Part shown: positions 41,216 to 58,048 of the stretch, piece by piece
Layout of the letters: each line of letters opens with the position of its first letter
Position numbering within the stretch: the first letter of the stretch is position 1
Assembly (NCBI GenBank): GCA_963732005.1
Contig: CAVSXT010000005.1
Span: 2,057,315-2,121,314 of the forward strand
DNA: 64,000 nucleotides
Source of the DNA: an uncultured Acidobacteriota bacterium
GTDB lineage: Bacteria > Acidobacteriota > Thermoanaerobaculia > Multivoradales > UBA5704
Direction: 5' to 3'
Notes under the pieces: model-generated
Database searches by the model: none
What the model saw: the letters and a program-made list of their open reading frames with translations, nothing else
What the model was told of the DNA's origin: nothing
Made by a program: the position numbers and the translations under genes

Positions 41216-41302
41216 GGAGGTGTGGCCGAGTGGACAATGGCAGCAGACTGTAAATCTGCCGGGCTAAGCCCTACCTAGGTTCGAATCCTAGCGCCTCCAC
41301 CA
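41216..41302 (+). tRNA. tRNA-Tyr (anticodon GTA), with encoded CCA
   Basis: GGAGGTG acceptor arm paired with CGCCTCC; anticodon loop CTGTAAA; long variable arm CGGGCTAAGCCCTACC; T-arm CTAGG-TTCGAAT-CCTAG; 3' ACCA. Confidence 0.9.
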
Positions 41303-41630
41303 ATGGAATCAATGAATTAGAGCGAGAAGCTGCCGGCTCCATACGCTGCAGTTGGACCAAATCTGGCCACTTAGGAAATTTTGCCGATGGTCTCGAGCGG
41401 TGCATCGGCCGCGGTGGCAAGGTCACCTGGTGGGGGGCCGCATTCCCTTGATGGATCGGGAAGAGTAAGTCGGCGACCATCGCCGGCAGCACCGATAGCC
41501 GACCTCATCGACCGCCGGGACGCGGTGTGCGCAGTGGCGATGCAGCCGGCACTGGAGGGCGGAGGTACCTTCCTGCACGACAAGGTCGCTTGGCGCGCGC
41601 CGCGGGCAAGCGCCGCGGCGCGCGTGGTGG

Positions 41631-45500: not shown

Positions 45501-45544
45501 GACCAGGGGGCGACAGTGACCTGCCTGCAGGCAGTGCCGGGCAC
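42512..45544 (-). CDS. CHAT-domain (caspase-like peptidase) protein with a long helical/TPR-like N-terminal region
   Basis: C-terminal CHAT domain IVHLAAHVL...LVVLSSCRAAGS...GLVEAFLATGVPAVVAALGSVDD with a His/Cys dyad. GTG start at the ORF track position; the true start is uncertain. Confidence 0.75.
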   Translation of the reverse strand: MPGTACRQVTVAPWSSCSTERARLRDALARPLASGPWFAGGVLAEPLAAGALVAPATGSEIAALHAIERRATQAPSADALADLGVARAVLGHHRLAEAALRHAAAMSPRNACILNDLGAFYLTHLTALDGPGRLAALDAIETALELSPLLPEARVNWTLALHAAFLAAPEAVSPSLTDGAVGARGLAGDPTAAWPSALARFEACPLPCAEANVLISSFPREMRKLAEERLLPRWAEAVQRGQDAAAARLLDLMTRIGQSVAACCSDSMLVEATALLRQAEPRRLPSLARSVSQVAAGLTTCQVNEGKRGEALLVPAARQLARTVPALAWWAEYGRGLCAYQSGHFGSAITILTALDRDLHGRYPSLRLRLLWLRGASLSHSGRNGDCLRDYHDAQVLAQHSGALAERAGVALNLYESLWLLGQRPAAWPWLYQGSRLAVQAGDPRRLIVAYATLCQAAQDSNLPHAALAFADRLVERSGPSLGQAGAAYALLTRARARAALGRKASALQDLKAAEGAAAALADPDSRRQWLADIWTERGHLLLKTAPVKAATELARATAVAQALHDAVRLIHFLTELAFAQTANHDSAAAAASLHKALLEVEAQRVHLDAGESRTAFLSQSRTVYDQWMSTSIEAHATPAALFAIADEARARALRDTLHLPAADAGLTHRLDRARALVEFAVLPHQLLIWVMTKGRIRFHIESIAAADLETWVQFLDSGPQDAREALRKLSSVLIDPIAPDIFGVTTLLVSPDKSLRRVPFAALAGPAGQPLVADHEVVIVPSAALADPRGATSGQALASAFVLGDPRLDAAIFSFLEPLPSARREATAIADLYRPNSVLSLGQDATAAAFSRGFGRFAIVHLAAHVLADDQQPDLSLLPLARASTEDKVALSAGDIRRLAAGRTRLVVLSSCRAAGSQDTEGSRGLVEAFLATGVPAVVAALGSVDDASAEQFFARFYRRLRSAEGPAAALRNTQLELLHGRDPVLHEVAAWGGFQLFQVATTERRISR

Positions 45545-45732
45545 CGCAAATGCCGCAAGCAGACAGACCCAGCGAATGAGACTGGTCAGATCAGCCTCCT
45601 GTAAAACGACAGCCCGAGTCGCTGCGCGGAGCGGAAGGGGCGGAGATGTTTGGCGTCCACCGTTCTTCTCCTCTGACGTGCTTAGACGGCCGTGCCGGCG
45701 TTTTTTCGCGGGTGCGGCGCGCAGACCTCTGA

Positions 45733-47199
45733 CTACGGCTCCCTGACAACGAAAAAGAACGGGTCAATGGATGGCTGCACGGGGTAACCTGCGAGGTCCG
45801 TCAGGACATGCCGTTTCCAGTCGACGTTACGTAAATACCTGACCTTGACGTGCTTGGGGATCTTGGTGGGGTCAGGGTTGTTATAGGCGGAGAAGATGCC
45901 GTAGAAATCCTTCCCGACTGCGATCAGGTGGTCGTAATCGCCGAGCGTGTTGTTGCCTTGGCAGGAGCCTGGAACATCCTGCGTGTTCGCCAGCATTTCG
46001 TGGACGGCTGGCGCGGTAGCGAAGCGGTTGTCCGAGATCTCGATGTGGGTTTCCCAGTAGTGGCTACCAGGAGTGCCGGTAAGCTTCTGGTAGAGGAAGC
46101 CGACCTGCCCCAGGTTGTTGACCGCAAGCGCCGGATTGGTAGCAGCGACGACCTGCCGTAGATCATGACTCCATCGGGCACCGCCGTCATACGAGGAGCG
46201 GAGATGCAGAGTGAAGGTGTCAGCGGTGGTGCCGTCAGCCCAGGCGATGTATAAAATCTTGCTCTTGCCTCGCCGCGGATCGACGGCGAGCGCGAGGTTG
46301 CCGCGGACCCTCTGAGTGCCGAGATACAGGTTGGGGAGCGAGATAGCGACAGCGCAAGCCGCGCAGACGCCGGGGACACCTCCCGCGCTAATTGCCTGAT
46401 AGGGATTCGATGCAGCCCCCCAGGCGTCGTCTCTGACGACGATCACATCGGCGATCGCGGGAGGTATGCACGACCTCGGATGCAAGAAGGCCAGGTACAC
46501 AGTGCCGTTAGGATGAATCGCCGGACGAATGGAAGTGCCGTCCATGCACCCGAGGGTCCGGGCATCGAGAGATAGGGGGCCGACAAAGTTGTCCAGCGGC
46601 GGGGCTTTCGCCGCGTCGAGTGATTGCTCGACGGCCGCTGACCGGTAGTAAGGTGCATCGAGGTTGTTGTAACCTACGTAAACGCGGTCGACGCCAGGGT
46701 TCAGGGCGGTCGCCTCCTCGACGTCGGGCTGGTCGCCGTCTTGGATCTGGATGAGATCGGTCATCGCGCCAGGCGCCAGTAAGTTGACCTGGCGTAGCAG
46801 GTCGACCTTCTTGTTGTCGTTACGCAGGATGCCCGCGTAAAGAACGCCAGAGGTTTGGGAAAATCGCAAGGTGATGTCGCACATGGCGGACCCGCCCGGC
46901 AAGACGCCCGGCAAGACAACGTTGAGAAGCCAGGTCATGCCGCCGTCGGTCGAGACGAAGATCGGCGCCTCGCTCGATTCGAGAGGGTCGGGTGTTAGGG
47001 CAGATGCTGCCATCTGAAGAGGGTTTGCCGGGTTGACCGCGATGCTCGGCTCGGCGTCGCAGTTGGATTCTCCACTTAGAGACCGCGGGATGACGTCGAC
47101 CACCTGGATCGTCGGAAGATGAGCACAGTGCAGCCCGAGCAGACTCAGAAGGAGGAGCAACCAGTTCTGCGGTGCCGCGAGAGGCGAGGGCCTCGTCAT
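45733..47199 (-). CDS. Secreted BNR/Asp-box repeat protein (sialidase-fold-like)
   Basis: Signal peptide MTRPSPLAAPQNWLLLLLSLLGLHCAH and Asp-box motifs STDGGMTW and SYDGGARW. Confidence 0.65.
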   Translation of the reverse strand: MTRPSPLAAPQNWLLLLLSLLGLHCAHLPTIQVVDVIPRSLSGESNCDAEPSIAVNPANPLQMAASALTPDPLESSEAPIFVSTDGGMTWLLNVVLPGVLPGGSAMCDITLRFSQTSGVLYAGILRNDNKKVDLLRQVNLLAPGAMTDLIQIQDGDQPDVEEATALNPGVDRVYVGYNNLDAPYYRSAAVEQSLDAAKAPPLDNFVGPLSLDARTLGCMDGTSIRPAIHPNGTVYLAFLHPRSCIPPAIADVIVVRDDAWGAASNPYQAISAGGVPGVCAACAVAISLPNLYLGTQRVRGNLALAVDPRRGKSKILYIAWADGTTADTFTLHLRSSYDGGARWSHDLRQVVAATNPALAVNNLGQVGFLYQKLTGTPGSHYWETHIEISDNRFATAPAVHEMLANTQDVPGSCQGNNTLGDYDHLIAVGKDFYGIFSAYNNPDPTKIPKHVKVRYLRNVDWKRHVLTDLAGYPVQPSIDPFFFVVREP

Positions 47200-47250
47200 G
47201 ATGATCTCTCGTGTCACGAAAGTGCGTCGGGCAGAAGGCCGGCGTGTCGA

Positions 47251-48078
47251 TCAGTTGGTCTGAACCGCGATGATCGAGCGGATCTGCTCGAGCCGGTCCA
47301 GCGACAGGACATCGAGTTCGTCAAGGGCCGTCAGTCCGAGTAGGTGCAGCACCGGCATCCCTCTCTCCTTTTGGTCGCGCTGCAAGATCAGGATCTGCAC
47401 GGTTCCTGTGCGCAACTTGGGTGAGGCCCGCCACAGCAAGTCCGTGCTGTTGGGAAAGAGGACGTGCAAGGCGGACGGCGGCTCGCCCATAAGGACGGAG
47501 TGGACTTCGATCGTAGCCACCCACCAATCGGGGTCGTGCTCAGCGATGAGGGGCGGGGCGCCGTATGACGACGCGGGGCAGGTCGCCTTGACGGTACCTA
47601 CGACGATAAGCTGGGCGCGGGCGACGCGATCGCGGAGCTGGGCGGCGAACGCCCTGTTCTCGGCATCGCGGATCCGCGCTGGAAGGCTCGCGCCCTCCGT
47701 GGGGTTCATGTGGTATATCTCAACTACGGCCAAGGTGTCGCCGAAGAGCCAGCTGCGAGTCAAGAAGATCGCGGCATCTCCGATTTTGAGGAGCGAGTCG
47801 CCCTTGAGCCTCACGGTGACGCGTTTTCCTTTCAGGGAATAGTATGGCCCCGCCACTGGCCGATAAACTTGGTCTACTTGGATCACCGCTGTACGAGAGT
47901 CGACGGGGAAGGCCGGTTCGGTCGCAGTTCCAATTGCCTTCACGGTGCCTTGGAATATGAACTGCGACCGGCTCAGCAGCGCATCAAGACCTTGGGCGCC
48001 CGCGAGCGCGGAAAGAGAAAGAGCCAAGGTGCCGAGGAGCGAGAGCTGGCGTGCTGTTGAGCAGCGTGACACCGCCAT
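47251..48078 (-). CDS. Secreted hypothetical protein
   Basis: Internal ATG followed by the signal peptide MAVSRCSTARQLSLLGTLALSLSALAGAQG. No family recognised. Confidence 0.5.
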   Translation of the reverse strand: MAVSRCSTARQLSLLGTLALSLSALAGAQGLDALLSRSQFIFQGTVKAIGTATEPAFPVDSRTAVIQVDQVYRPVAGPYYSLKGKRVTVRLKGDSLLKIGDAAIFLTRSWLFGDTLAVVEIYHMNPTEGASLPARIRDAENRAFAAQLRDRVARAQLIVVGTVKATCPASSYGAPPLIAEHDPDWWVATIEVHSVLMGEPPSALHVLFPNSTDLLWRASPKLRTGTVQILILQRDQKERGMPVLHLLGLTALDELDVLSLDRLEQIRSIIAVQTN

Positions 48079-48398
48079 CGTTCGCCCCCGCGCTCGACTC
48101 CTGGATTGTGGGGCACCCATGCGAGTCTCCGATGGCGACGGCCGTGAGTGTCGCGGGGCCGGAGAGGGGCGGATGCTCAGTCTGCCCCGATGGTGGAAGA
48201 GTCTACGAGGCAGTCCGACTGAGGGCAAGCATTTTGATGCATTGCGATATCGACAAATGAGGTGGTTCTTACAGTCCGGATCGGCGGTGGAGCAGGAAGG
48301 CGAGGCTGCCATAGGCGCTCACTTCGATCGCTCAAGGAGGCGATCGATGAAGAAATGCGGCAGCGTGCACGGCGACGCCATTTGCGAGGAAAATAACC

Positions 48399-48782
48399 AT
48401 GCCCGACAGAACCAAGAAGACCCCAAGAGCGAACACCACTGTGAAGAGCGAAGAGCGGAACCTGTTTCGCGAATTGATGTCTGGCGTGAAGGCGATGCAG
48501 CAACACCGCGAAGGGCGACTCACCTTGCGGAGCCACCACGTCCTGCCGATCACGCTTCCTCCCTTGAATCCGCAGCTCGTGCGCGACACGCGTGAAGCGT
48601 TGCACATGTCACGACAGGTGTTTGCGTTGAAGCTGGGCGTGAAGCCCCGCACGCTCGAACGCTGGGAGCAAGGACGTAGCAAACCAAACGAGCAGGCGGC
48701 AGCACTGATCTGGTTGGTGCGGAAATATCCGGACACTCTCGAGCGTATCGAGTCCCTGAGTGTTGGTGAGAGCAAGGCCTGA
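48399..48782 (+). CDS. XRE-family HTH protein, COG2944/HigA-MqsA-like antitoxin-type regulator (no cognate toxin identified)
   Basis: TREALHMSRQVFALKLGVKPRTLERWEQGRSKPNEQAAALIWLVRKYPDTLERI is characteristic of this antitoxin family. The start is uncertain (no Shine-Dalgarno sequence at 48399). Confidence 0.6.
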   Translation: MPDRTKKTPRANTTVKSEERNLFRELMSGVKAMQQHREGRLTLRSHHVLPITLPPLNPQLVRDTREALHMSRQVFALKLGVKPRTLERWEQGRSKPNEQAAALIWLVRKYPDTLERIESLSVGESKA

Positions 48783-48820
48783 ATGAGTGAGGGTTGCGGG
48801 CATGAGCGCGGCCGTGGCCT

Positions 48821-49879
48821 CTACGCCAGGATCTGCTCGATGCAGGCTGCCGCGCCGGGCAGCTGCCGGTACTCGAGGCAGCGTGACCGCTGGCGCTCGC
48901 GCAGCTCTTCCAGGTCTTGACGCAACGCACCGAACGCTGCGGCGGCCGCCTCCGGGTTGGCGCACCGCAGGTGGCGAAACTCGAGGGGCACGGGGTCGGG
49001 CGGCAGGACCGCGCCAGCGGCGACACGCAGCAGATTTCCGGGGACCGGGCCGGGCCTGCCCGGGCGCGGCAGGGCGGCCGGATCCACCAGAGCGAGCGGG
49101 ACGCCCATGGCCGCCGCGCGAGCGGCCAGGACGGAGCGGCAGTTGGCGGTGATCAGGAGGTCGTGGCGCGCGACCTCGGCCTCGAGCTCGCCGTAGGGGA
49201 GGTCCTCTCGGATGACCCGCGCCTGGCGAAGAAACGGCAGGGAGGGGTCGAGCGGGCTCAGCACACTGAGCTCGACGTCGAGCTGGGAAAGACCTTGGAA
49301 GGCCAGGCGCTCGGCGGCCGGAAATTCCGGAAAGGCATGCATCCAGGGCGCGGCCGCCCACAGCCAGCGGTGGTGGCGCCGCGGGCGGCCCGCCCTCGCG
49401 CCGGCCGAGAACACGAGCTGTTCCGCACGGGGCGCCTCGCCGTAGGTGAAGGGCCGCGGCAGGATGACCGCGACGCCGGGCGGGAGCGGGCAGACGAAGG
49501 AATCGCCGCAAGGATCCAGCGCCGCGATGCGGACGCCGGCCGCCTGCCAGAGCGCCAGCAGCGCCTGGGTCAGCTGGGGGAAGATCGGCACCTGGAAGAA
49601 GGCGCGAAAGCTCGCCAGCACGATGAGGTCGGGAGCACGATCCATCGGGCGCACCTCGACGTCGAGGCCGCTCTGCCCGCGCTGCTTTTCGAGCAGGGCA
49701 AACCCGCGCAGGCGGCGCAGCAGACCGTCGACCCGGGGATGCGGGTCCCAGGCGCGGAGCAGCTCCGCATAACGGATCCGAAAACGTTCCCTGGACAAGC
49801 CCCGCGCCAGCCGGATGAGCGCCGTCAGCTCGCCGATGCTCCCCGCCATGAGGTGAGTGCTGGTCGAGGGGAAGACCAT
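48821..49879 (-). CDS. Putative GT-B fold glycosyltransferase (MurG/GT28/MGT-like)
   Basis: Two-lobe pattern: an N-terminal domain (MVFPSTSTHLMAGSIGELTALIRLARGL) and a C-terminal nucleotide-sugar lobe (DLLITANCRSVLAARAAAMGVPLALV). Weak assignment. Confidence 0.45.
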   Translation of the reverse strand: MVFPSTSTHLMAGSIGELTALIRLARGLSRERFRIRYAELLRAWDPHPRVDGLLRRLRGFALLEKQRGQSGLDVEVRPMDRAPDLIVLASFRAFFQVPIFPQLTQALLALWQAAGVRIAALDPCGDSFVCPLPPGVAVILPRPFTYGEAPRAEQLVFSAGARAGRPRRHHRWLWAAAPWMHAFPEFPAAERLAFQGLSQLDVELSVLSPLDPSLPFLRQARVIREDLPYGELEAEVARHDLLITANCRSVLAARAAAMGVPLALVDPAALPRPGRPGPVPGNLLRVAAGAVLPPDPVPLEFRHLRCANPEAAAAAFGALRQDLEELRERQRSRCLEYRQLPGAAACIEQILA

Positions 49880-49907
49880 GAGCACCCACGGACGGCGTCG
49901 CCGGCCC

Positions 49908-50729
49908 TCAGGAGATCGTCGTGACATGCGGTTGGAGCAGACCTGCGATCGTCCCCTCGAGCGCCAGCAGCGGCGGCCGGCCCGCCTCGCGATGCCGCCG
50001 CCGCGCCTCGACCAGCGAGGCCAGCAGCGCATCCTCGGCGGTGTTGAGATTGAGATGGATCTCGCGAAACTCGAGGGCCTCGGCCCGCGCCCCGCGAGCG
50101 AGCAGCCACGACAGCAGATCGCCGAGATGCGGGTGGCGCCGCACCAGGTCGGGCGGCACGCCGTCGAGCAGCCCGGCGCCGAATCCCACGCAACCGCACC
50201 AGCGGGTGCTGCCGGCCAGCTGGCCGGCGGCCGGCTTCTCGCGCACGCTCAGCACGCGGCCGGCAGCGTCGGTCACCACGTTGCACAGGATCCTGTGCGA
50301 CTCCGAGTCGCGCACGACGCCCACCAGCAGATCGGGCGCCGCCGCCCGCCCGGCCAGCGCGCGGAACGGCGACGAGTCTTCGTAGTACTCGTCGCCGAGG
50401 AGCACGAGCGCCGCATCTCCTGCCAGCCACGGCGCCAGCGACAGCAGGCCCAGGATCGGACCGAGGGGCTCGGCTTCGGCCACGCAGGAGATGGTCACTC
50501 CCGTCGGCGGCGTGTAGAGGGCGAGCGCCGAGCGCACGCTGCCGGCGAAGGTCGCCGAGGTCGCAACCAGGATCTCGGCGACGCCCGCCTCGGCACACTG
50601 CTCGATCTGGCGCATCAGGAGCGGCTGGTCGAAGACCGGCAGCAGGCACTTGGGCAGCACCTGGCCCAGGGTGCCGAGGCGGGAGCCCCTGCCCCCGGCC
50701 AGGATGACCGCCCGCGGATACGGGACCAT
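49908..50729 (-). CDS. Sugar-1-phosphate nucleotidylyltransferase (NTP_transferase, RmlA/GlmU-like)
   Basis: RAVILAGGRGSRLGTLGQVLPKCLLPV signature. ATG at the complement of 50727-50729 (the TTG called in the track lies 9 nt upstream). Confidence 0.8.
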   Translation of the reverse strand: MVPYPRAVILAGGRGSRLGTLGQVLPKCLLPVFDQPLLMRQIEQCAEAGVAEILVATSATFAGSVRSALALYTPPTGVTISCVAEAEPLGPILGLLSLAPWLAGDAALVLLGDEYYEDSSPFRALAGRAAAPDLLVGVVRDSESHRILCNVVTDAAGRVLSVREKPAAGQLAGSTRWCGCVGFGAGLLDGVPPDLVRRHPHLGDLLSWLLARGARAEALEFREIHLNLNTAEDALLASLVEARRRHREAGRPPLLALEGTIAGLLQPHVTTIS

Positions 50730-50843
50730 GGGCGCCAACGGTAGCCGCTGCTCGCTCCCGCCGCAAGTCCGGGGAAATGCTAAGGTGCCGGCGTACGCGG
50801 CGATTTCGCGGCGATCCTGCCGCTACCCGCGACGCAATGTTCC

Positions 50844-51773
50844 ATGAGGTCGACGCATGGAGGACGGCGAGCTGGTCGAGGTCGCTGCCGAAGGGCGCCC
50901 GGCTCGCCTGCCCGGCGAGGACCACAGCGGCCATGGCAGCCTGGTCAGCCCGGCTATTTCGCCGCGCTGAAGATCCCGCTGCTCGCCGGCCGGACCTTCA
51001 GCGAGCGCGACGACCGCAAGAGCCTGCCGGTGACCATCCTTGGCCGTTTCGCGGCGGCCCGCCTCTGGCCGGGACAGAATGCGGTCGGCCGGCGCGTCAC
51101 CTTCGGCCGGATCCCGAGCCGGCCGGACGCGCCATGGTGGACGGTGATTGGAGTGGTGGGCGACGTGCGCGACACCGACCTCGCCGTCGCGCCGGAGATG
51201 GAGGTCTACATCCCGCAGCTGCAGCTTCCGGTCGGGACCTCGACGCTGGTCGTGCGCGCCGCGGGCGACCCGCGGAGACTGGTCGGACCGATCCGCCGCG
51301 CCATCCGGAGGCTCGACGCGGACCTGCCGCTCGACAAGGTGCAGACCCTGGCGCGGGTCGTCTCGTCGGCGCTCGCCGGCCGGCGCGTCAGGACCTGCCT
51401 GCTGGGCATCCTTGCCGCCCTGGCGCTGGTGCTGGCGGTCGTCGGGGTCTACGCGCTGGTCAGCGGCTCGGTCGGCGAGCGGGTGCACGAGATCGGCATC
51501 CGCATGGCCCTGGGCGCCAGGGGCGACGAGGTGGTGCGAATGATCGTTCGGCAGGGGATGCGGCTGGTCGCCGCCGGCCTGCTGCTCGGGCTGGCGGGTG
51601 CCTATGCTTTCAGCCGGCTGCTGGCAGGCCAGGTCTACGAGGTCGCGGTCGCGGACCCGTGGACCTACCTCGGCGCGGCGGGGTTTCTCGCGGCCTTTGC
51701 CTTGCTCGCCAACTGGCTGCCGGCGCGGCGGGCGAGCCGCGTCGATGCGCTCGAGGCAATGCGCTGCGAGTGA
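50844..51773 (+). pseudogene. Truncated FtsX/MacB-type ABC permease: only the C-terminal roughly 270 aa; the N-terminal TM helix and most of the periplasmic domain are missing
   Basis: The protein-like sequence starts abruptly at ...PGYFAALKIPLLAGRTFSERDD and continues through the FtsX 3-TM bundle (VHEIGIRMALGARGDEVVRMIV...). The first 37 codons of the ORF are Arg/Gly junk. There is no upstream partner. Confidence 0.55.
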
Positions 51774-51785
51774 AGACAAGCAGCG

Positions 51786-51830
51786 CCGGCCCGCCCTCGA
51801 TCCCGGAGGCGGGAGCGGGAGCGGGCCGGC
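51786..51830. terminator. GC-rich hairpin (GCCGGCCCGC ... GCGGGCCGGC) between convergent transcription units; a possible bidirectional terminator
   Basis: 10-bp perfect inverted repeat read directly. No clear U-tract, so the call is tentative. Confidence 0.3.
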
Positions 51831-51905
51831 GGTCTGCCGTTGCAATGGGCCGTTGCCGCGTCTGCAGGCGGTTCCTTCAACGAAGCCGCTGCGGTACGGT
51901 GCGGG

Positions 51906-52052
51906 TCAGGGCTTGCAGGGTTCGGTGTGCCCCGAGGGCGTGAGGTTGCAGGAGCCCCCGGCGATCTCCGCCAGATCCAGGTCTCTCGCCGGGGTGATCA
52001 GATTCAGCACGGTCTCTTTCGACAGGACCAACTGCTTCTTCCTTTTCTTCAC
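51906..52052 (-). CDS. Small ORF (48 aa) resembling a RiPP/bacteriocin precursor peptide: Lys-rich N-terminus, double-glycine-type leader (DLDLAEIAGG) and a Cys/Ser/Thr/Pro-rich 15-aa core (SCNLTPSGHTEPCKP)
   Basis: Hand translation of the minus strand: GTG(52052) AAG AAA AGG ... TGA(51906-51908) gives MKKRKKQLVLSKETVLNLITPARDLDLAEIAGGSCNLTPSGHTEPCKP. AAAGGGG Shine-Dalgarno sequence 5 nt upstream. An AT-rich promoter-like stretch (TTCAAC...TATAGCATAAG) lies immediately upstream. Not in the ORF track (below 60 aa). Confidence 0.55.
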   Translation of the reverse strand: MKKRKKQLVLSKETVLNLITPARDLDLAEIAGGSCNLTPSGHTEPCKP

Positions 52053-52114
52053 GTTCGCCCCTTTCTTATGCTATACGACTGTTGAACTAGCCTCTTATAC
52101 ATCGTTTCCATGGT

Positions 52115-53482
52115 TCAGGACAAGGGGATCGGCAAGGTGGAGATCAGTAGCGCCCGATCCCAGGCCGGATCGACGTGAGAGACAGCCGCGAGGAGAGCCA
52201 GTCCGATGCCCGTGGCGCCCCTGGCGAACCCGGGCTCGTCCAACCACTCGCCACGATAGGTGATGCGAAAGCCGGCAATGCCGACGCCAGGCGTGCGCTG
52301 GGCGAGCGCCCGGTCGAGCCAGCGGCGCGCGGCCTCGGCGAAGGCCGTCTCGCCGGTCGCCTGATAGAGCCGGTTGAAGACGTGGCCGATACCGGCCGGC
52401 CCGTCGGAGAGCCCGGCGCCGGCGCCGCCGGCCATGCCGGGATGGCCGGGATGGCGGGCGGCCGCGGCGAGCGCCACGCGCCGGCCGGCGGCTTCCCAGG
52501 CCGGCTCGCCGGCGCCACGCGCCGCCAGCAGCAGGCTGGCGGCGATGCCGAGATCCCCGACCCGCCAGGCGAGTGGGCTACCCCGCGCCGCGGCGCCGGG
52601 GAAGTGGAACTGAGGAAAGCGGTAGCCGCTCTCGGGAGGCTGCTCGCGCGCCAGCAACCAGGAGACCGTGGCCGCGAGCAGCGGCCGCGCCGCGGGGGCG
52701 GCGACACCGGCCTGACAGGCGGCACCCAGCAGCGCGATGACGCCCGCGATCCCCTGGCCCATGCCGAGGACATAGGCGCCCTGCGGGAGCTCGCCGCGGA
52801 ATGGAGGAGGCAGGTCGCCCACCGGGCTGAAGAAGGCGGCACCTTCCGGATGGCGCTCGGCGCGGCGCGCCAGCTGGGTGACCACCGCCTCCAAGCATTG
52901 CGCCGCGTTAGGCCGCGGCAGCCGCTCGAGCGCGTAGACGCCCAGCCCCACCAGGCCGGTGAAGAGGTCGTAAGCGCCCTCCCAGGACGAGCGCGAAAGG
53001 CCACGCAGGAGGACCTCGTCCACCTCGCGGTTGCCGTCCTCCTCGTCCGCGAACAGTCGCCCAGCCAGGTGGGCCGCGGCCCAGGCGATCCCCGGAAATC
53101 CGAGGTACAGGCTGGTGCCCAGGCGCAGGCCGGCGGCGGCCTCGGTGGCCTGGTCGAGCAGGTCGATGGCGACGTCGGCATGGGCATCGCCGGCGCCGTG
53201 AAGCGCAAGGTAGGCATGGAGGAGGCACTGCCCCACGCGGCCGCTGCTCAGCGCGTTCTCCCAGATCGGAACGCCCTCGGGCCGGAGGTTGCGGGGAAAG
53301 CAGCTGACGCCGCGGGCGGTGACGGCGGCGATGTCGCCGGCCGCCGCCAGCGCTCGGGTCGCGGCCTCGCCGGCCAGGAGGGGGCTCCAGGGGAGGCTCA
53401 CGCCCGGATCATGTGGGACCCGGCGGAGCGGGTCAATCGTCGCCGCCAGCGCCCTGCTCTCCCCGCGACGGGGGCGGGGCAC
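52115..53482 (-). CDS. LanC-like (lanthionine synthetase C-like, alpha/alpha-toroid with GxxG repeats) protein lacking the canonical Zn-ligand Cys/His motifs
   Basis: Repeated GxxG-containing helices (SLYLGFPGIAWAAAHL, DLFTGLVGLGVYALE, GMGQGIAGVIALLGAA, LSDGPAGIGHVFNRLYQATGE). Where LanC has SWCHG and GLCHG, this protein has GMGQG and LSDGPAG. Start uncertain: GTG at 53482 chosen; the ATG at 53638 would overlap the divergent gene by 110 nt. Confidence 0.55.
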   Translation of the reverse strand: MPRPRRGESRALAATIDPLRRVPHDPGVSLPWSPLLAGEAATRALAAAGDIAAVTARGVSCFPRNLRPEGVPIWENALSSGRVGQCLLHAYLALHGAGDAHADVAIDLLDQATEAAAGLRLGTSLYLGFPGIAWAAAHLAGRLFADEEDGNREVDEVLLRGLSRSSWEGAYDLFTGLVGLGVYALERLPRPNAAQCLEAVVTQLARRAERHPEGAAFFSPVGDLPPPFRGELPQGAYVLGMGQGIAGVIALLGAACQAGVAAPAARPLLAATVSWLLAREQPPESGYRFPQFHFPGAAARGSPLAWRVGDLGIAASLLLAARGAGEPAWEAAGRRVALAAAARHPGHPGMAGGAGAGLSDGPAGIGHVFNRLYQATGETAFAEAARRWLDRALAQRTPGVGIAGFRITYRGEWLDEPGFARGATGIGLALLAAVSHVDPAWDRALLISTLPIPLS

Positions 53483-53527
53483 TCGGGGCAGCAAGTAGAC
53501 TAGAAGCTCCGACTGCGAGGCCAGACC

Positions 53528-54595
53528 ATGGATGAGAAACGGCTGGATTGGAGCACTTCGTACGTGGTTCCCGCGAGCCTTCGCTTCCGGCTGACGCCTG
53601 CCGGAAAGCTCCGCGCGGATGCCGAGTGGGCTCCCCATGTGATGACCGAGCAGGCCGAGGTGGCAGCCGATCAGGTCGAGCTGCTGCTCGGTTTCGCGAG
53701 CCCCCTGGTGGCCGAGGCGGCGTTCGCGCGCGCGGCGGAGACCTGGGACCTCGACCGCGAGACCTACGGCCTGCTGCTCGAGACCTGGATCGCCCGCGGC
53801 CTGCTGCGGCCGGTCGACGCCGGCGCCTACGCGACCACGCGCCTGGCGCTGTTCGCCGAGGCGGTCGCGGAAAAGGCCGCGACTGCATCTCCGGTCTTCC
53901 CGCTGCGCTCGCACTTCGCCATGCAGCAGCCGGTGCTGTTCGTGCCCGGGCTGGGCACCCGCGAGATCCACGACGGCCGGCGCTTTCCCTGGGTCGCCGT
54001 CCTCGAGACCGCCTTCCCGCTCATCCAGGCCGAATTCATCGCGCTTCTCGCCAGCTCCGACTTCTTGCGGGTCAACCCCGACTTCACCCATCAGGGAGAA
54101 TGGGCGGCGGCCTACCTCTGGGCTCACGGCGAGAGAATCGACGCGATCTGCCGCCAGTGTCCGGAAACCACCCGCCTGTTGACCTCGATCCCCGGAGTCT
54201 CGCAATTCGGCCTGGCGATGTTCTCGGCCCTCGCCCCGCACACCCGGATCGCGCCGCACCATGGCGTCACCAACGCGATCCTGCGCTGCCAGCTGCCGCT
54301 AAGGGTGCCGCCCGGCTGCAAGCTGAAGGTCGGAGATCACGAGCTCGAGCAGCAGGAAGGGCGCTGCATCGTCTTCGACGACTCCTTCCTGCATTCGGCC
54401 TGGAACGATAGCGACCAGGCGCGCTTCGTCCTGCTGTTCGACTTCTTCCACCCCGACCTGACCGGCGACGAGATCGAGTATCTGGCGCGGCTGCCGGCGA
54501 AGCAGGCCATGGCCAAGCACCACCTCGCCCAGGCGGTCGGTGGCCCGAAGGCGGAGTGGGCGAAGCAAGGGCCCGCCGGCGGCCCTGCCGGGTGA
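53528..54595 (+). CDS. Aspartyl/asparaginyl beta-hydroxylase family (Fe(II)/2-oxoglutarate oxygenase) protein with a roughly 150-aa N-terminal extension
   Basis: C-terminal KLKVGDHELEQQEGRCIVFDDSFLHSAWNDSDQARFVLLFDFFHP matches Asp/Asn beta-hydroxylase (LpxO/AspH). The N-terminal 150 aa are of unknown function. Confidence 0.75.
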   Translation: MDEKRLDWSTSYVVPASLRFRLTPAGKLRADAEWAPHVMTEQAEVAADQVELLLGFASPLVAEAAFARAAETWDLDRETYGLLLETWIARGLLRPVDAGAYATTRLALFAEAVAEKAATASPVFPLRSHFAMQQPVLFVPGLGTREIHDGRRFPWVAVLETAFPLIQAEFIALLASSDFLRVNPDFTHQGEWAAAYLWAHGERIDAICRQCPETTRLLTSIPGVSQFGLAMFSALAPHTRIAPHHGVTNAILRCQLPLRVPPGCKLKVGDHELEQQEGRCIVFDDSFLHSAWNDSDQARFVLLFDFFHPDLTGDEIEYLARLPAKQAMAKHHLAQAVGGPKAEWAKQGPAGGPAG

Positions 54596-54695
54596 CGGCG
54601 CCCTGAGCAGACCTGAGCAGCCGTCGTCCGGTGCCGCGGCCCCTCCTGCGGCCGCTTCGCCGGACATCTCCTGCAACGGAACGGGACAGGAAGCA

Positions 54696-56282
54696 ATGGA
54701 CAAAGCCACGAACAGATGGATTGCGCGCTCGGCCCTGCCCGCCGTCGTGGCGGCGCCAACCCGAGAGGCCGGCGGGGGGTGGCCGAGGGCCACCGCGGCG
54801 CGGCCGTGGGTCTGGGGGGCCATTGCCTGCTGGGCCGCCGTGGTCGGCTTTCTCGGCTGGCGCTTTCGGGGCCAGGCGCTCGACGACTTCTTCATCACCT
54901 ATCGCTATAGCCTGAACCTCGCCGAAGGACGGGGCTTCGTGTTCAACGCCGGCGAGCGGGTGTTCGCGCTCACCAACCCGGGGCTGGCGCTGGTGCTGGC
55001 CCTGGGCCGGACGCTGACCGGTCTGGAAGTGCCGCTGCTGGCTTCGGCGCTCTCGGGCCTGGCGCTGCTGGCGGTGGCGGTCCTACTGCTGCTCGAGGCG
55101 CGGGCGCTGGGACGGGCGCCGGAAGCGCTGCTCGGCGGCACGCTGCTGGTGACCTCCTCCTTCCTCTGGGTGCTGCAGGGCGGCGAGGGGATGGTGATGC
55201 TCGCCCTGCTGCTGCTGGCCGCGCGGTGGGGAGCCGACCGGCCGGTCCTGGCCGGCCTGCTGGCGGGTTTTGCCGTCTGGTGCCGCCCGGAGGCCGCGAT
55301 CGGCGCCGGCCTGCTGGCGATCCTCTTGTGGCGGGAGCGCAAGCGGTTGCCGTGGCGCCTGGCTGCCACCGCGGCTGCCGTCGTCCTGCTCGGCGTGCTG
55401 CTCGCCTGGCTCTATTTCGGCAACGCCATCCCGAACTCCCTGGCCGCGAAGCGCGCCCTGGCGGCGGGCAGCTCGGGGCTGGGCTTCTGGCCGCAGTCGG
55501 CGGAGCTGGCACGGCGTCATGCGGGGCAACTATGGCCGGCGGTCGTCGGGCTCGGACTGCTGGGGCAGTGGCCCCTGCTGCGCTCCGGGGGCCGCTGCCT
55601 GCGGCTGCTCTCCCTGCTGGCGCTGAGCCTCACGGTGATCTATCCGCTCCTCGGCGTGCCCTATGCGCCGTGGTACGTGCTGCCGATGGCCGTGGCGATG
55701 CTGTACGGGCTCGGTTTCCTGATCGGGTTGCCGGCGCGGCTGAAGGCCACGGCCACCCCGCTTGCCGGCCGGGCGCTCGCCACGGCCGCCGCCGCGCTGG
55801 CCCTCGCGGCGGTGGTGATCTCGCTGGCGCCGGCCGAGGCCCGGCGGCTGCGCCGGTTCACCTGGCCGCCCTACATGCGGGCCTACCAGCGGGCGGCGGA
55901 GTGGCTGAACGCCAACACGGCGCCGGCTGCGGCGGTGTCGTATTTCGAGGTCGGGGCGCTCGGCTATTTCAGCGATCGGACGGTGATCGACATGGTCGGC
56001 ATTGTGACGCCCGAGCTCTTGCCTTACGTGCGGCGTCGCGATTTCGCCGGCGCCTTCCTGGCCCGTCCCGGTGCCTTCGCTCTCGTGGATCCGGACCAGG
56101 GTCCCTTCATGCCGGCCGATAGGCCCTGGTTCAAACGCGCCTACCAGCCCGTGGCCACGTTCGGCGAGCAGGGGAGGCTGGTCCTGTATGAGCGCCGCGT
56201 CGACGTCGGCCTGCCGCGGGCACCGTCGCCCGGCGGCGATCCGGACGCGGGCGGCGGCAGCGGCAGCAACGCAACGCGCTGA
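54696..56282 (+). CDS. GT-C fold membrane glycosyltransferase-like protein (ArnT/PMT-superfamily-like), paralog A
   Basis: About 11 TM helices with a first-loop motif DDFFITYRYSLNL. ATG at 54696. The 3' end overlaps convergent paralog B by about 142 nt. Confidence 0.55.
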   Translation: MDKATNRWIARSALPAVVAAPTREAGGGWPRATAARPWVWGAIACWAAVVGFLGWRFRGQALDDFFITYRYSLNLAEGRGFVFNAGERVFALTNPGLALVLALGRTLTGLEVPLLASALSGLALLAVAVLLLLEARALGRAPEALLGGTLLVTSSFLWVLQGGEGMVMLALLLLAARWGADRPVLAGLLAGFAVWCRPEAAIGAGLLAILLWRERKRLPWRLAATAAAVVLLGVLLAWLYFGNAIPNSLAAKRALAAGSSGLGFWPQSAELARRHAGQLWPAVVGLGLLGQWPLLRSGGRCLRLLSLLALSLTVIYPLLGVPYAPWYVLPMAVAMLYGLGFLIGLPARLKATATPLAGRALATAAAALALAAVVISLAPAEARRLRRFTWPPYMRAYQRAAEWLNANTAPAAAVSYFEVGALGYFSDRTVIDMVGIVTPELLPYVRRRDFAGAFLARPGAFALVDPDQGPFMPADRPWFKRAYQPVATFGEQGRLVLYERRVDVGLPRAPSPGGDPDAGGGSGSNATR

Positions 56283-58048
56283 GGCACGCGCTGCCGCGCG
56301 CTCAGCGGTCGCCGGACCGTGGAAGCGGCAGGCCGCAGCCAGTCACGGCTCTCGCAGGCGCGGATCCGGTCGTCGGTGAGCGGTACCGGGCGCTCGATCA
56401 CCCGCACCTGCTTGCCGCCGCGCAGGTGGACGTTGGGCAGGAAGCATTCCACGTAGCCGGGCGGCGGCTGCCGTTCGTGCGCCATCAGGACGCGCCCGCC
56501 GGCCGCCAGCGGCGCGCGCGCGATCACCCGATCGTTGAGGCCCAGGGTGTCCACCACGGCGACGTGCGGCAGGACCCAGCCGGCGAGGCCGACGCCGCTC
56601 GTCGCCATCACCGGCCGGCCGCTCCAGGAGATGCGGGCGCCGTCCTGCCGCGACGGAAACCGCTCGGTCAGCCAGATCAGGCAGACCGCGTGCTCCTGCC
56701 GGCGCAGGCCGATGGCGTGGCCGATCAGCGTCGCCTGCCAGCCATCCCAGGCCGCGACGATGGGCCGCACCGGCGGCGGGAAGTCCCCGGCCAGCGGCCA
56801 GCGCAGGAAGGAGGTCTGCTCGCGGCTCAGGAGATCCCTGGTGCGCCACCAGTACAGCCATGGCAGCGGCCAGGAGGCGAGCAGGAAGACGCTCAGCGTC
56901 GCGACGGCGGCGGCGCCACCGAGACCGGCGGCGTCGACCAGCGCCAGCGCCGAGAGCAAGAGCAACGGGATCAGGTAGCTAAAGACGCGGTACTCGAAGT
57001 GATCGCCGCCGACGATGAGTGTGTAGTAGGCGACGTGGGTCACCACCACCGCCGGCGCGAGCACTCTCGCCAGCCGCGCCGCCACGGGCCGGGTGCTCGG
57101 GACGCGCCGCGGCGAGAGCAGGCCGCGGCAAGCCGCCGCCACGGCCAGCGCCAGCCAGACCCAGGTGCCGTTCTCGACCACGAAGCTGGCGAGGTAGCGC
57201 CAGCCCATCTCGGGCCACGGCGCCGGCACCTTGGCGTAATAGGTGTTTGGCAGCCAGGAGCCGTAGGTCCAGCGGCGCCACAGCAGGTGAGCGGCGATGG
57301 CCAGCAGCGGGCTCGCCGCGAGGACCGTCGCGCGCACCGGCCTGGCGTGCGACGGGGCGGCGGCGAGCAGGAGCAGCGCCGTGGCCGGCACCGTCAACAG
57401 TCCATCCGGCCGCGCCAGGCAGGAGAGCGCGGCGGCGGTCGACAGCCGCAGGCCCCAGGCCAGGCCGGCCTCGTCGCCGCCCACGAGTCCGAGGGCTTCG
57501 AGCAGCCACCAGGTGAAGCAGAGGTTCCAGAGCTGGGTCTCGAGCCCGGAGCTCAACCAGGTCAGGAAGGTGGTGTTGGTGCAGATACCCAGCAGGACGA
57601 GGGCCGCCAGCAGGGTCCGCCGCCGGTCCAGCCGGGGTGAGAGCCGCAGGCGTCCGCCGGCGCGCCAGACGAGCGCCAGCGTCGCGAGCCCGCAGAGCAG
57701 GCTCAGCCAGCAGGAGGTGCGCGGCGGATCGATCCCCGTCAACCGCCAGGCGGCGCCGAGCAGCAGCGCCCACAGGAGGCTGGTGTAGCCCTCGACCGGC
57801 AGGAACGGCGGCGGGTTCCAGATCAGGCCGTATCCCGCCAGCAGGTTGGAGACATAGCGGAACGTGATGTAGGCGTCGTCGGTCTGGAACCAGAGCAGCT
57901 TCCAGCCGGCGACGGCGACCAGCAGCGCCGCGCCGAGCACCCAGTAGCGCGCGGCTCCGGGGGCCGGCCCGCGACGCCGGCCCGGCAGGTCCCCTGGCGA
58001 GCTCGCTTGCTCCGGTTCCAGGGTTGCCGCCGTCGGGGTCGGGCTCAT
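56141..58048 (-). CDS. GT-C fold membrane glycosyltransferase-like protein, paralog B, translationally coupled to cydB
   Basis: First-loop motif TDDAYITFRYVSNL. Polytopic. Its ATG (complement of 58046-58048) overlaps the cydB stop (ATGA). Confidence 0.6.
   Translation of the reverse strand: MSPTPTAATLEPEQASSPGDLPGRRRGPAPGAARYWVLGAALLVAVAGWKLLWFQTDDAYITFRYVSNLLAGYGLIWNPPPFLPVEGYTSLLWALLLGAAWRLTGIDPPRTSCWLSLLCGLATLALVWRAGGRLRLSPRLDRRRTLLAALVLLGICTNTTFLTWLSSGLETQLWNLCFTWWLLEALGLVGGDEAGLAWGLRLSTAAALSCLARPDGLLTVPATALLLLAAAPSHARPVRATVLAASPLLAIAAHLLWRRWTYGSWLPNTYYAKVPAPWPEMGWRYLASFVVENGTWVWLALAVAAACRGLLSPRRVPSTRPVAARLARVLAPAVVVTHVAYYTLIVGGDHFEYRVFSYLIPLLLLSALALVDAAGLGGAAAVATLSVFLLASWPLPWLYWWRTRDLLSREQTSFLRWPLAGDFPPPVRPIVAAWDGWQATLIGHAIGLRRQEHAVCLIWLTERFPSRQDGARISWSGRPVMATSGVGLAGWVLPHVAVVDTLGLNDRVIARAPLAAGGRVLMAHERQPPPGYVECFLPNVHLRGGKQVRVIERPVPLTDDRIRACESRDWLRPAASTVRRPLSARQRVPQRVALLPLPPPASGSPPGDGARGRPTSTRRSYRTSLPCSPNVATGW

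Follow-up and report, generated by a model that had tools for sequence, protein, structure and literature searches.

Human AspH acts on Asp or Asn residues within a Cys-bounded macrocycle. Among the LanC cyclases, Asp141 and His212 (NisC numbering) are essential; the cyclase domains of class IV synthetases retain the zinc ligands, and class III alone is without them (PMC10604976). In the class III enzyme ThurKC, the three ligand positions hold Ser, Phe and Asp, the last of which (Asp771) is required for cyclisation, and the domains of the enzyme function in trans (PMC10604976). Here we describe a locus in which a LanC-family protein that has lost its zinc ligands is encoded divergently from an AspH-type hydroxylase and beside the gene of a small peptide. 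It lies in the window, by which we mean the whole 64-kb stretch of DNA that was analysed. We propose to read this locus as a lanthipeptide (RiPP) cassette of derived class I type from Thermoanaerobaculia (Acidobacteriota). A precursor with a double-glycine leader is accompanied in it by a protein of the LanC family and by a hydroxylase that serves as an accessory tailoring enzyme, and these would work in the manner set out below; we give this reading, mechanism included, a probability of about 60%.

Gene content of the locus

Table 1. Features of the locus, with positions and strands in the window.
Feature	Position	Strand	Remarks
342-aa protein gene, no family match	48821-49849	-	may belong to hydroxylase module
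NTP-transferase gene	49908-50738	-	PF00483/PF12804; may belong to hydroxylase module
MacB/FtsX-type ('ADOP'-like) permease gene, truncated	50844..51773	+	partial MacB_PCD + FtsX
Precursor peptide gene	51906..52052	-	48 aa, GTG start
LanC-family gene	52115..53401	-	428 aa from GTG 53401
Promoter-like site	53408..53436	-	TTGACC-17 nt-CATGAT; consensus scan
AspH-type hydroxylase gene	53528..54595	+	355 aa; PF05118; divergent from LanC-like gene
Hydroxylase N-terminal domain	53528..53872	+	residues ~1-115; predicted RRE-like

An earlier note on this DNA had placed the start of the LanC-like gene at either GTG 53482 or ATG 53638, but neither fits. The homologues of 415-440 aa all start 1-6 residues ahead of a conserved PW-P motif, AlphaFold (AF2) models the first 27 residues of the 455-aa ORF as disordered, and the end of a promoter-like site lies 7 nt ahead of GTG 53401; for these reasons we chose this codon as the best start. 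Read from this codon, the gene is separated from that of the hydroxylase by 126 nt, with no overlap. The promoter-like site is a match to the consensus only, one such match being found against 0.1 expected in shuffled sequences; a transcript of the LanC-like gene made from it would be leaderless or nearly so.

The small peptide that had been noticed beside the divergent pair is a real and conserved ORF, and in the window lineage its gene is conserved together with the LanC-like and AspH genes. It starts 60 nt downstream of the LanC-like stop codon, with an AAAGGGG ribosome-binding site in the AT-rich spacer, and encodes the leader MKKRKKQLVLSKETVLNLITPARDLDLAEIAGG and the predicted core SCNLTPSGHTEPCKP. 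Orthologues of the peptide occur in four other loci (L003, L004, L010 and L093) and related peptides in two more (L005 and L006), and the NCBIfam family lant_leader_L1a gives a weak match (E 0.07). Leaders of the type MKK..KL.L.[KR]ET[LIV] were found in 41 of 92 loci, mostly right after a LanC gene.

On the far side of the peptide gene, the NTP-transferase gene and the gene of the 342-aa protein, for which neither Pfam nor NCBIfam returned a match, lie within a 5.8-kb block that is syntenic with L003 and L093. In L092, orthologues of these two proteins (69% and 64% identity, respectively) are encoded directly ahead of an AspH gene fused to the same N-terminal domain as in the window, and L096 also has both orthologues. 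The permease gene of the window keeps only the C-terminal ~310 aa of a protein that measures 806 aa in L003, and about 1.5 kb of L003 in the permease region (10541-12054) is missing from the window. The truncated gene is possibly what is left of an exporter. No LanB, no other dehydratase, no leader protease and no intact exporter were found in the 64-kb window; given these absences and the truncation of the adjoining permease, the cassette may be incomplete.

The LanC-like protein and the loss of its active site

The LanC-like protein matches PF05147 with 75.3 bits (cut-off 23.2, E 4.5e-21) over profile positions 2-350 of 350. A total of 590 homologues were found, the best of them from Thermoanaerobaculia, and among GTDB species genomes tblastn confirmed 292 of 305 pattern matches as relatives, with several per genome. 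The AF2 model (pLDDT 87.6) is closest in Foldseek to the class I cyclase MadC (E 3e-13, TM 0.72/0.75), NisC follows with E 6e-9, and the class III enzyme ThurKC ranks 16th (E 6e-5), while glycoside hydrolases and epimerases match at only E 5e-3 or weaker, the glycoside hydrolases at about 1e-2. The LanC fold is therefore kept, as the earlier note had supposed. The PF05147 match and the rank of MadC and NisC also speak against an unrelated alpha/alpha-toroid identity, such as a glycoside hydrolase.

The same note had taken the protein for a stand-alone version of a class III-type, metal-independent cyclase. The best NCBIfam match is indeed the class III (LanKC) cyclase region (E 1e-13), which scores 50.6 bits where 575 would be required; however, all close homologues are class I-type LanCs, and both sequence and fold place the protein in the class I family. 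Nor is zinc independence common to classes III and IV, as had been stated, since the class IV domains keep their ligands.

The LanC family to which the protein belongs is large and often multi-copy, its genes normally lie directly upstream of those of precursor peptides, and a full LanB adjoins in about a third of cases. The sole constant feature across the loci is the LanC gene followed by the peptide gene. A LanB (PF04738 + PF14028) is encoded within 10 kb of LanC in 28-30 of 79 loci, with none in the closest relatives, and chromosome OY970330.1 carries at least four LanC loci with a LanB detected at one only (L059).

Active-site residues were assigned from alignments to MadC (8BYK) and to sets of 40 and 98 relatives. 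In NisC numbering, the LanC-like protein carries H212Q (in GMGQG), R280P, C284R and Y285V (in SPLAWRVGD), and C330S and H331D (in GLSDG), and it retains the equivalent of Asp141 (in YDL). The claim that both zinc motifs had been lost thus holds in that all three ligands are gone and GLCHG has become GLSDG. It fails for GMGQG, which corresponds to the G-x-x-H-G motif of the acid/base His (NisC His212); the first zinc motif, (A/S)WC(Y/H)G, here reads AWRVG. With these six catalytic and zinc-binding positions changed, the protein can neither bind zinc nor carry out the known acid/base chemistry.

This loss is exceptional within the family. All seven NisC-equivalent residues (DHRCYCH) are intact in 79 of the 98 relatives, the Cys at the C284 position is kept in 90 and all three zinc ligands in 89 (one fragment could not be scored). 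Only three small lineages have lost the ligands, namely that of the window (DQPRVSD), L005/L006 (DQGRMGD) and L007/L013 (NERWAAL); L011/L012, at 70% identity, lack only His212 and Tyr285. Judged from these alignments, ligand loss is recent, stepwise and limited to a few close lineages, and in the window lineage the acid/base His went first, before Arg280, the zinc ligands (both Cys and the His) and Tyr285. The LanC-like protein is, on the same comparison, a recently degenerated member of the large class I LanC family of Thermoanaerobaculia.

Degeneration of the active site has not been accompanied by relaxed constraint. The LanC-like ORF is unbroken in at least four lineages that are dS 0.1-0.9 apart, and dN/dS in the degenerate clade is 0.26-0.37, with 0.22-0.48 for pairs of intact relatives. 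From this agreement we conclude that the protein is still under selection, and that the purifying selection acting on it is, by these estimates, the same as that on its catalytically intact relatives. The corresponding values are 0.16-0.20 for the precursor peptide and 0.27 for AspH compared with L003.

Constraint of this kind would also be expected if the zinc-less protein were still a cyclase that had converged on a metal-independent mechanism like that of class III, a reading we consider unlikely. Asp360, at the His331 position, would then activate the Cys thiol with the assistance of Arg307, at the Cys284 position, and one or two rings, for example from Thr10 or Ser7 to Cys13, would form after a LanB or a kinase/lyase encoded elsewhere had dehydrated the peptide. 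The Asp and the Arg occur together in four of five ligand-less lineages (the window, P0001, P0002 and P0003), the core segment S7-x-x-T10-x-x-C13 resembles the class III motif Ser-x-x-Ser/Thr-x(2-5)-Cys, and ThurKC offers a parallel in its ligand-position residues, its need for Asp771 and the action of its domains in trans; the class III region as best NCBIfam match, although far below its cut-off, points the same way. Against this, the replacements are not conserved across the ligand-less lineages: P0005 has Cys/Val/Cys/Tyr and L007/L013 Trp/Ala/Ala/Leu. Such variability looks like drift after loss of function and not like a new active site. Furthermore, the fold is closest to class I, His212 has become Gln and not part of an Asp/Arg pair as in ThurKC, and the window and the closest loci encode no kinase, lyase or LanB. 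Comparison with the class III pattern gives a mixed picture: the zinc ligands are absent and the Asp is present, but Ser rather than Phe, Tyr or Met stands at the Cys330 position, and Leu or Tyr replaces the Asp in sister lineages.

The hydroxylase and its N-terminal domain

The gene divergent from that of the LanC-like protein encodes an AspH-type β-hydroxylase, in agreement with the earlier note. Its catalytic cupin domain spans residues ~155-315 and matches PF05118 over residues 162-309 with 150.3 bits (cut-off 22.6, E 5e-44). In the alignment to human AspH (5APA), PHhGvTN, FDDSFlHsaW and aRfvllfDffHPdL pair with PHtGpTN, FDDSFeHevW and fRlifivDvwHPeL, and both His that bind Fe are conserved, as is the Arg that binds 2OG. 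By this alignment the active site is of the intact AspH type. OlsC and LpxO are the only named NCBIfam relatives; membership of either equivalog was rejected, the scores being 96.7 bits against a cut-off of 450 for OlsC (NF052565) and 58.6 against 500 for LpxO (NF033391).

An extension of 150 aa had been described ahead of the catalytic domain. The extension is real, but it consists of a domain of only ~100-115 aa and a poorly modelled linker (residues ~121-148, pLDDT <50). For the domain, AF2 predicts the order β-β-β-(β)-α-α-α, with pLDDT 74-95 over residues 1-100, and the winged helix-turn-helix arrangement by which the RRE fold is recognised, a three-stranded β-sheet followed by three helices, is present in this model. 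The domain is rare, with 16 matches among 1.84 billion representative proteins, and it is N-terminal every time. None of 17 members matches a Pfam family, PF05402 included, even at E up to 10, and no PDB sequence matches better than E 0.1. Besides stand-alone copies, there are fusions of the domain to AspH and to PRMT-like methyltransferases. Fusions to sulfotransferase-like proteins are probable as well, to judge from a P-loop motif recognised by eye and a Pfam match that stays below threshold (E 0.051). A PqqD gene neighbours P0130.

The genomic context of the domain is often that of lanthipeptide synthesis. AspH proteins bearing it are encoded beside LanC, LanB or LanM in 8 of ~15 loci with usable context, to which four methyltransferase or stand-alone loci can be added. 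They adjoin an intact LanC and a leader peptide in L100/L107, L104 and L109, form a LanC-LanB-AspH operon in L110, and lie next to LanM in L097; the methyltransferase fusion occurs beside LanC and a peptide in L088 and L074, and the stand-alone form follows LanC in L090/L091. No lanthipeptide gene is present at about half of the usable loci with AspH (L092, L096, L098, L103, L105 and L108). The suggestion that the extension recognises peptides gains from the RRE-like predicted fold and from its recurrence beside LanC, LanB, LanM and leader peptides of the type seen in the window, and the available evidence supports the view that it is a previously undescribed, putative leader-peptide docking domain of RRE-like predicted fold. 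The same recurrence bears out the idea that LanC, AspH and a small peptide form a peptide-modification module. Because LanC is catalytically intact in the other AspH-linked loci, loss of zinc is not a feature of the pairing.

The locus could instead be a decaying remnant, with a dead cyclase, a truncated exporter, no dehydratase and a peptide that is no longer matured, in which the hydroxylase has the NTP-transferase and the 342-aa protein as partners and acts on something other than a peptide, for example a lipid or glycan, as its distant relatives LpxO and OlsC do. Every catalytic residue of the LanC-like protein except the Asp141 equivalent has been lost, the adjoining permease gene has suffered a 1.5-kb deletion, OlsC and LpxO are the only named relatives, and the NTP-transferase, the 342-aa protein and AspH are found together again in L092 and L096, where there is no LanC. 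We nevertheless find this improbable: the intact LanC-like ORF with its dN/dS of ~0.3, no higher than in intact LanCs, and the constraint on the peptide conflict with decay, the OlsC and LpxO scores fall far under their cut-offs, and the N-terminal domain is repeatedly tied to loci with LanC, LanB, LanM or leader peptides.

Proposed mode of action and comparison with known systems

For the lanthipeptide cassette that we favour, we propose that the leader peptide is bound by the N-terminal domain in the manner of an RRE, and that the cupin domain would then hydroxylate a carbon in one of the side chains of the core. For the residue that is modified, and for what the dead cyclase does now, we infer the following. 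Asn3 would be the obvious candidate target, being the only Asn of a core that holds no Asp. Asn is found at core position 3 only in AspH-bearing loci (the window, L003, L004, L010 and L093), whereas L005 and L006, which lack AspH, have Gln or Thr. However, neither Asp nor Asn occurs in the peptides linked to AspH in L104 and L109. This weakens the idea that the enzyme acts on Asn or Glu of the peptide; the target of the clade need not be Asp or Asn, Asn3 is only a guess, and any residue within the shared S/T-G/N-H/I-T stretch is as good a candidate. As for the LanC without zinc ligands, it would no longer perform canonical thia-Michael cyclisation. Its retention probably reflects a non-catalytic function, for example binding the leader, chaperoning the peptide or scaffolding it for the tailoring and export machinery, although the Asp at the His331 position in four of the five ligand-less lineages, the residue essential in ThurKC, may mean that some metal-independent cyclase activity persists. 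Any dehydration would need a LanB encoded elsewhere in the genome.

The distribution of Asn3 also enters into a scheme in which AspH acts first and the LanC-like protein second, without a dehydratase. A β-hydroxyl would be placed, for example on Asn3, and the remodelled LanC pocket would promote elimination and/or addition of Cys to give a β-thioether; or the product would be a hydroxylated peptide with a Cys2-Cys13 disulfide, similar to the loop on which AspH acts in EGF domains. The divergent arrangement of the two genes across 126 nt, their conservation along with the peptide gene in the lineage of the window, the lack of a dehydratase nearby and the macrocyclic substrates of human AspH are all consistent with such a scheme. 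But all other AspH-linked loci have an intact LanC, or LanB or LanM, which makes the pairing independent of the zinc-less LanC, and closely related zinc-less LanCs (L005/L006 and L007/L013) occur without AspH. Chemistry of this kind is undocumented, the scheme is speculation, and we hold it to be very improbable. A further reading, in which a class I LanC has been rebuilt as a metal-free enzyme or peptide-binding partner, with the Arg/Asp pair in place of the zinc site, and joins an RRE-bearing hydroxylase in making a cross-linked or hydroxylated peptide without a dehydratase, is a long shot. If it is true, cyclisation of the lanthionine type without zinc would have arisen a second time in nature, independently, or thioethers would be reached by a new route that depends on hydroxylation.

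Compared with the class I LanC proteins NisC, SpaC and MadC, the LanC-like protein belongs to the same Pfam family and has the same seven-repeat α/α-toroid fold, with MadC (8BYK) and NisC (2G02) as the closest structures. The gene context is also alike, beside a Ser/Thr/Cys-rich double-glycine precursor; the adjoining LanB is seen in relatives but not inside the window. In contrast to class III LanKC, the protein stands alone, without kinase or lyase domains, and is nearer to class I in sequence and fold (E 6e-5 for ThurKC against 3e-13 for MadC). Like ThurKC, it lacks the three zinc ligands and has Asp at the NisC His331 position, but Phe770 and the Asp667/Arg610 pair of ThurKC have no counterpart, Ser and Gln being found instead, and its ligand loss is recent, with replacements that differ among sister lineages.

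The hydroxylase shares with human AspH the PF05118 cupin, at ~30% identity, and the conserved Fe/2OG residues. It differs from human AspH and from LpxO/OlsC in having neither the TPR domain of the former nor a membrane anchor, and in carrying a different N-terminal domain. This domain resembles the PqqD-like RRE in its predicted three-stranded sheet followed by three helices, and in its occurrence at the N-terminus of varied tailoring enzymes or as a free-standing protein; it differs in showing no detectable sequence similarity to PF05402, and its peptide binding is putative. The nearest functional parallels are the RiPP Asp β-hydroxylases CinX/DurX of class II lanthipeptides, YhhC, CanE and SmaO, which we compare as Fe(II)/2OG enzymes of RiPP clusters and not as PF05118 members. 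An RRE-like N-terminal domain is not described for these enzymes in the literature searched. As in those clusters, hydroxylation of a peptide is predicted here, and relatives of the window enzyme are encoded beside LanM (L097) and beside LanB and LanC (L110).

The zinc-less LanC-like protein

The two divergent genes described in the earlier note, a LanC-like gene and an Asp/Asn beta-hydroxylase (AspH) gene in DNA of about 72 % G+C, are real, since each matches its Pfam profile (see table). A homologue search with the LanC-like protein returned 590 proteins, the best of which are annotated Thermoanaerobaculia (Acidobacteriota) proteins of 415-440 aa, and in a GTDB scan with a single genome for each species tblastn confirmed 292 of 305 pattern matches as relatives, often several per genome. 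We aligned the protein with the class I cyclase MadC (8BYK), with 40 family members, and with 98 family genes from fetched loci. In NisC numbering, SPLAWRVGD aligns on S-R-x-A-W-C-Y-G-D (Arg280, Cys284, Tyr285) and GLSDG on G-L-C-H-G (Cys330, His331). The zinc site has indeed been lost, as proposed, but GMGQG, previously taken for a former zinc motif, aligns on the G-x-x-H-G motif of the acid/base histidine (His212).

To describe the loss we scored seven active-site residues, D-H-R-C-Y-C-H. The full pattern is present in 79 of the 98 family genes, most of them 40-55 % identical to the window protein, and 11 more (one a fragment) differ at one or two non-ligand positions. At 70 % identity, loci L011 and L012 read DQRCFCH, having lost His212 and Tyr285. 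The zinc ligands are missing only in the window lineage (the window with L003, L004, L010 and L093; 95-100 % identity, DQPRVSD), in L005/L006 (74 %, DQGRMGD) and in L007/L013 (67 %, NERWAAL), with the homologue P0005 as a partial case. Read from these alignments, zinc-ligand loss is stepwise and lies inside one shallow clade, whose sister lineages carry different replacements. This distribution is decisive for the reading of the protein as a degenerated class I LanC.

The AlphaFold model, a confident one (pLDDT 87.6), agrees in its nearest structures, MadC (E 3e-13, TM 0.72) and NisC. Glycoside hydrolases and epimerases were marginal in a structure search dominated by LanC structures, and we rejected any other α/α-toroid family; the LanC fold assignment survives. 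The class III enzyme ThurKC came at rank 16 (E 6e-5). The protein had been interpreted as a stand-alone class III-type cyclase. Zinc ligands are kept in cyclase classes II and IV, and in ThurKC the three positions are taken by Ser/Phe/Asp, with Asp771 required for cyclisation (PMC10604976). The Asp of GLSDG resembles this Asp771 and is for that reason suggestive, at the level of sequence, of a class III-like feature, but the remaining class III signature is missing, and we rejected the class III interpretation on the family alignment together with the fold ranking.

The start codon also needed revision, because neither GTG 53482 nor ATG 53638, the choices considered earlier, fits the homologue N-termini and the model, and we replaced both with GTG 53401. 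A conserved PW-P motif follows 1-6 residues after the N-terminus in 39/39 aligned homologues, the AlphaFold model leaves the first 27 residues of the 455-aa version disordered, and a promoter-like site lies just upstream of GTG 53401, from which translation gives VSLPWSPLL… and a protein of 428 aa. With this start the LanC-like and AspH genes are separated by 126 nt and do not overlap.

Selection on the protein was assessed by dN/dS (Nei-Gojobori). Within the zinc-less clade, all six pairs fall at 0.26-0.37 (dS 0.10-0.89), including the window against L003 (0.29, dS 0.10), L005 (0.30, dS 0.57) and L007 (0.26, dS 0.89); for relatives whose zinc ligands are intact, 33 pairs give 0.22-0.48, and relaxed selection on the zinc-less cyclase was discarded on this comparison. 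The precursor peptide gives 0.16-0.20 (dS 0.12-0.85). The zinc-less reading frame is unbroken in at least four lineages, which, with the unrelaxed constraint, argues against a decaying pseudogene and suggests that the protein is functional. Its role is probably a non-catalytic one, for example in binding the leader, as a chaperone or as a scaffold, although it may instead have gained a metal-free activity. We read the LanC-like protein as a class I cyclase that, in this lineage, has been stripped of its catalytic residues and is still maintained by selection.

Precursor peptides and scattered LanC cassettes

The 48-codon precursor gene lies beyond an unusually AT-rich spacer that carries an AAAGGGG ribosome-binding site, and encodes the leader MKKRKKQLVLSKETVLNLITPARDLDLAEIAGG and the predicted core SCNLTPSGHTEPCKP. 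Leaders of the style MKK..KL.L.[KR]ET[LIV], followed by a Ser/Thr/Cys-rich core, were seen at 41 of 92 loci, in most cases directly 3' of the LanC gene. NCBIfam's leader model for class I lanthipeptides gives a weak match to the window peptide, and Pfam Lant_leader_dom gives one to a relative. A precursor-type peptide is the sole constant neighbour of LanC across loci; what else flanks it differs greatly from locus to locus and includes housekeeping genes.

In unbiased neighbour clustering, 28-30 of 79 loci had a full-length LanB (PF04738 + PF14028) no more than 10 kb away, and none of the LanCs at these 28-30 loci exceeds 51 % identity to the query. The chromosome OY970330.1 has at least four LanC loci (L014, L059, L076, L088), with LanB detected at only one. 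No LanB, LanM or kinase/lyase-type lanthipeptide enzyme was found among the large ORFs examined between 5 and 64 kb of the window, and no leader protease is present in the window. The many LanC-precursor cassettes with no LanB anywhere close, and the detection of LanB at just one of the OY970330.1 loci, suggest a distributed class I system that would escape cluster-based mining, its LanC-LanA cassettes often being found at a distance from the dehydratase gene. In OY970330.1, and also in OY970373.1 and OY969112.1, several LanC-precursor cassettes lie megabases apart in one Thermoanaerobaculia genome. At L027 a single LanC is followed by five tandem precursor genes whose cores alternate between two types (…WTGC.S.CT.C and …WTSCI.P.CCGFEQQQRIA), and at L001 an amidohydrolase gene (PF01979) overlaps the start codon of an intact LanC by 4 nt, a possible alternative tailoring partner.

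Synteny of the window with L003 and L093 is limited to a block of about 5.8 kb, with unlike flanks on both sides, as if the block had moved or its surroundings had been rearranged. Within it, the window has lost about 1.5 kb relative to the 94 %-identical L003; the lost segment codes for the first ~480 aa of an 806-aa MacB/FtsX 'ADOP'-type permease, of which the window retains a C-terminal fragment. A neighbouring stretch has a G+C of 0.62-0.67, below the ~0.72-0.77 found elsewhere, and contains a CHAT-domain gene and three large ORFs without a family match; the LanC cassettes of L001 and L003 likewise have CHAT or caspase-like (Peptidase_C14) genes in their vicinity. Two large multi-pass membrane proteins, with only marginal glycosyltransferase/O-antigen-ligase-like matches, are encoded beyond the hydroxylase. 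From its listed GTG start, the first gene would run over the last 56 nt of the AspH gene, and translation therefore probably begins at a more downstream codon.

Positions of the features discussed
Feature	Locus	Position	Strand	Remarks
CHAT-domain protein	window	42512-45544	-	1010 aa
Low-G+C stretch	window	41200-48700
Syntenic block	window	48817-54613		342-aa protein, NTP-transferase, permease, peptide, LanC-like, AspH
NTP-transferase + 342-aa protein	window	48821-50738
NTP-transferase + 342-aa protein	L092	3986-7806		with N-domain-AspH
NTP-transferase + 342-aa protein	L096	3457-7864		with N-domain-AspH
Deletion relative to L003	window	50788-50859		L003 10541-12054
Permease fragment	window	50844-51773
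Precursor peptide	window	52052-51906	-	60 nt past LanC-like ORF end
LanC-like protein	window	53401-52115	-	PF05147 LANC_like, E 4.5e-21, entire profile covered
σ70-like site (predicted)	window	53436-53408	-	TTGACC-17-CATGAT; sole site in 51.7-53.7 kb; stops 7 nt short of GTG
AspH	window	53528-54595	+	PF05118 Asp_Arg_Hydrox, E 5e-44, residues 162-309
Membrane protein	window	54540-56282	+
Membrane protein	window	56141-58048	-
Amidohydrolase overlapping LanC start	L001	6670-8004
Five tandem precursors	L027	5952-6928
Truncated AspH/LanC fragment	L089	216-1822
Precursor between intact LanC and AspH	L104	1390-1617
Precursor between intact LanC and AspH	L109	9690-9914

The hydroxylase and its N-terminal domain

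The catalytic domain of the hydroxylase is about 30 % identical to human AspH, with both iron-binding His and the Arg that binds 2OG aligned, and its LpxO and OlsC scores are far under their cut-offs. The domain that precedes it has the look of a recognition domain, as had been speculated, although it comprises about 115 residues and not 150. With a profile of this N-domain we found no significant match in Pfam or in PDB sequence searches. Exhaustive phmmer against 1.84 billion representative proteins gave 16 matches, always N-terminal, compared with only 7 in each of the word-indexed searches, and a metagenome scan added further AspH genes that carry it. The N-domain is fused to AspH domains, to PRMT/PrmA-like methyltransferases, to AspH with a second 2OG oxygenase and, probably, to sulfotransferase-like P-loop proteins (motif by eye and a sub-threshold Pfam match, E 0.051).

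Several of these genes lie among lanthipeptide genes. N-domain-AspH genes neighbour a catalytically intact LanC and a peptide in L100/L107, L104 and L109, a class II LanM in L097 and a PqqD gene on the P0130 contig, and form a LanC-LanB-AspH operon in L110. At L088 and L074, N-domain-methyltransferase genes directly adjoin LanC and peptide genes, and a stand-alone 108-aa N-domain gene overlaps the LanC stop codon in L090/L091. With the leader-type peptides beside LanC, these neighbourhoods uphold the idea of a peptide-modification module. We predict, with moderate confidence, that the N-domain is an RRE-like docking domain and the enzyme a lanthipeptide tailoring hydroxylase. Among the N-domain-AspH loci whose context is usable, no lanthipeptide gene is seen at roughly half. 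L092 and L096, which are without LanC, pair N-domain-AspH with orthologues of the NTP-transferase and 342-aa protein (69 % and 64 % identity) that also lie inside the window's syntenic block; in L092 they form an apparent operon that ends with an AspH-second 2OG-oxygenase fusion. The 342-aa protein has no match in Pfam, NCBIfam or PDB. At L089, an N-domain-AspH truncated to 216 aa directly adjoins part of a canonical LanC gene in convergent orientation, and the locus appears rearranged or decayed.

Candidate targets and known systems

Asn3, at position 3 of the predicted core, is the only Asp/Asn of the window core, and Asn at this position occurs only in the AspH-bearing lineage. As hydroxylase target, Asn3 is now a weak guess, because the AspH-linked peptides of L104 (SCQTCISGITCCP) and L109 (VCTGTPVSGITCCP) contain neither Asp nor Asn; for the same reason, the AspH clade may hydroxylate another residue type. 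In our reading, the AspH-linked cores seem to share a loose S/T-G/N-H/I-T stretch.

Our literature search yielded no article that deals with LanC pseudoenzymes, with PF05118 in RiPPs or with comparable Thermoanaerobaculia class I clusters, although absence from such a search is no proof of novelty. If functional, the zinc-less LanC would be a natural lanthipeptide cyclase retained for a purpose other than zinc catalysis, and would bear on LanC leader recognition, on the scaffolding of biosynthetic complexes and on the possible origin of the metal-independent class III cyclases. The N-domain, which Pfam and PDB sequence searches miss, is a marker of tailoring enzymes (a hydroxylase, a methyltransferase and, probably, a sulfotransferase) in largely unexplored acidobacterial lanthipeptide clusters and could therefore serve as a handle for genome mining. 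Among known systems, CinX/DurX and further RiPP Asp hydroxylases (PMC12186529) are the analogues of the window hydroxylase in its predicted tailoring role.
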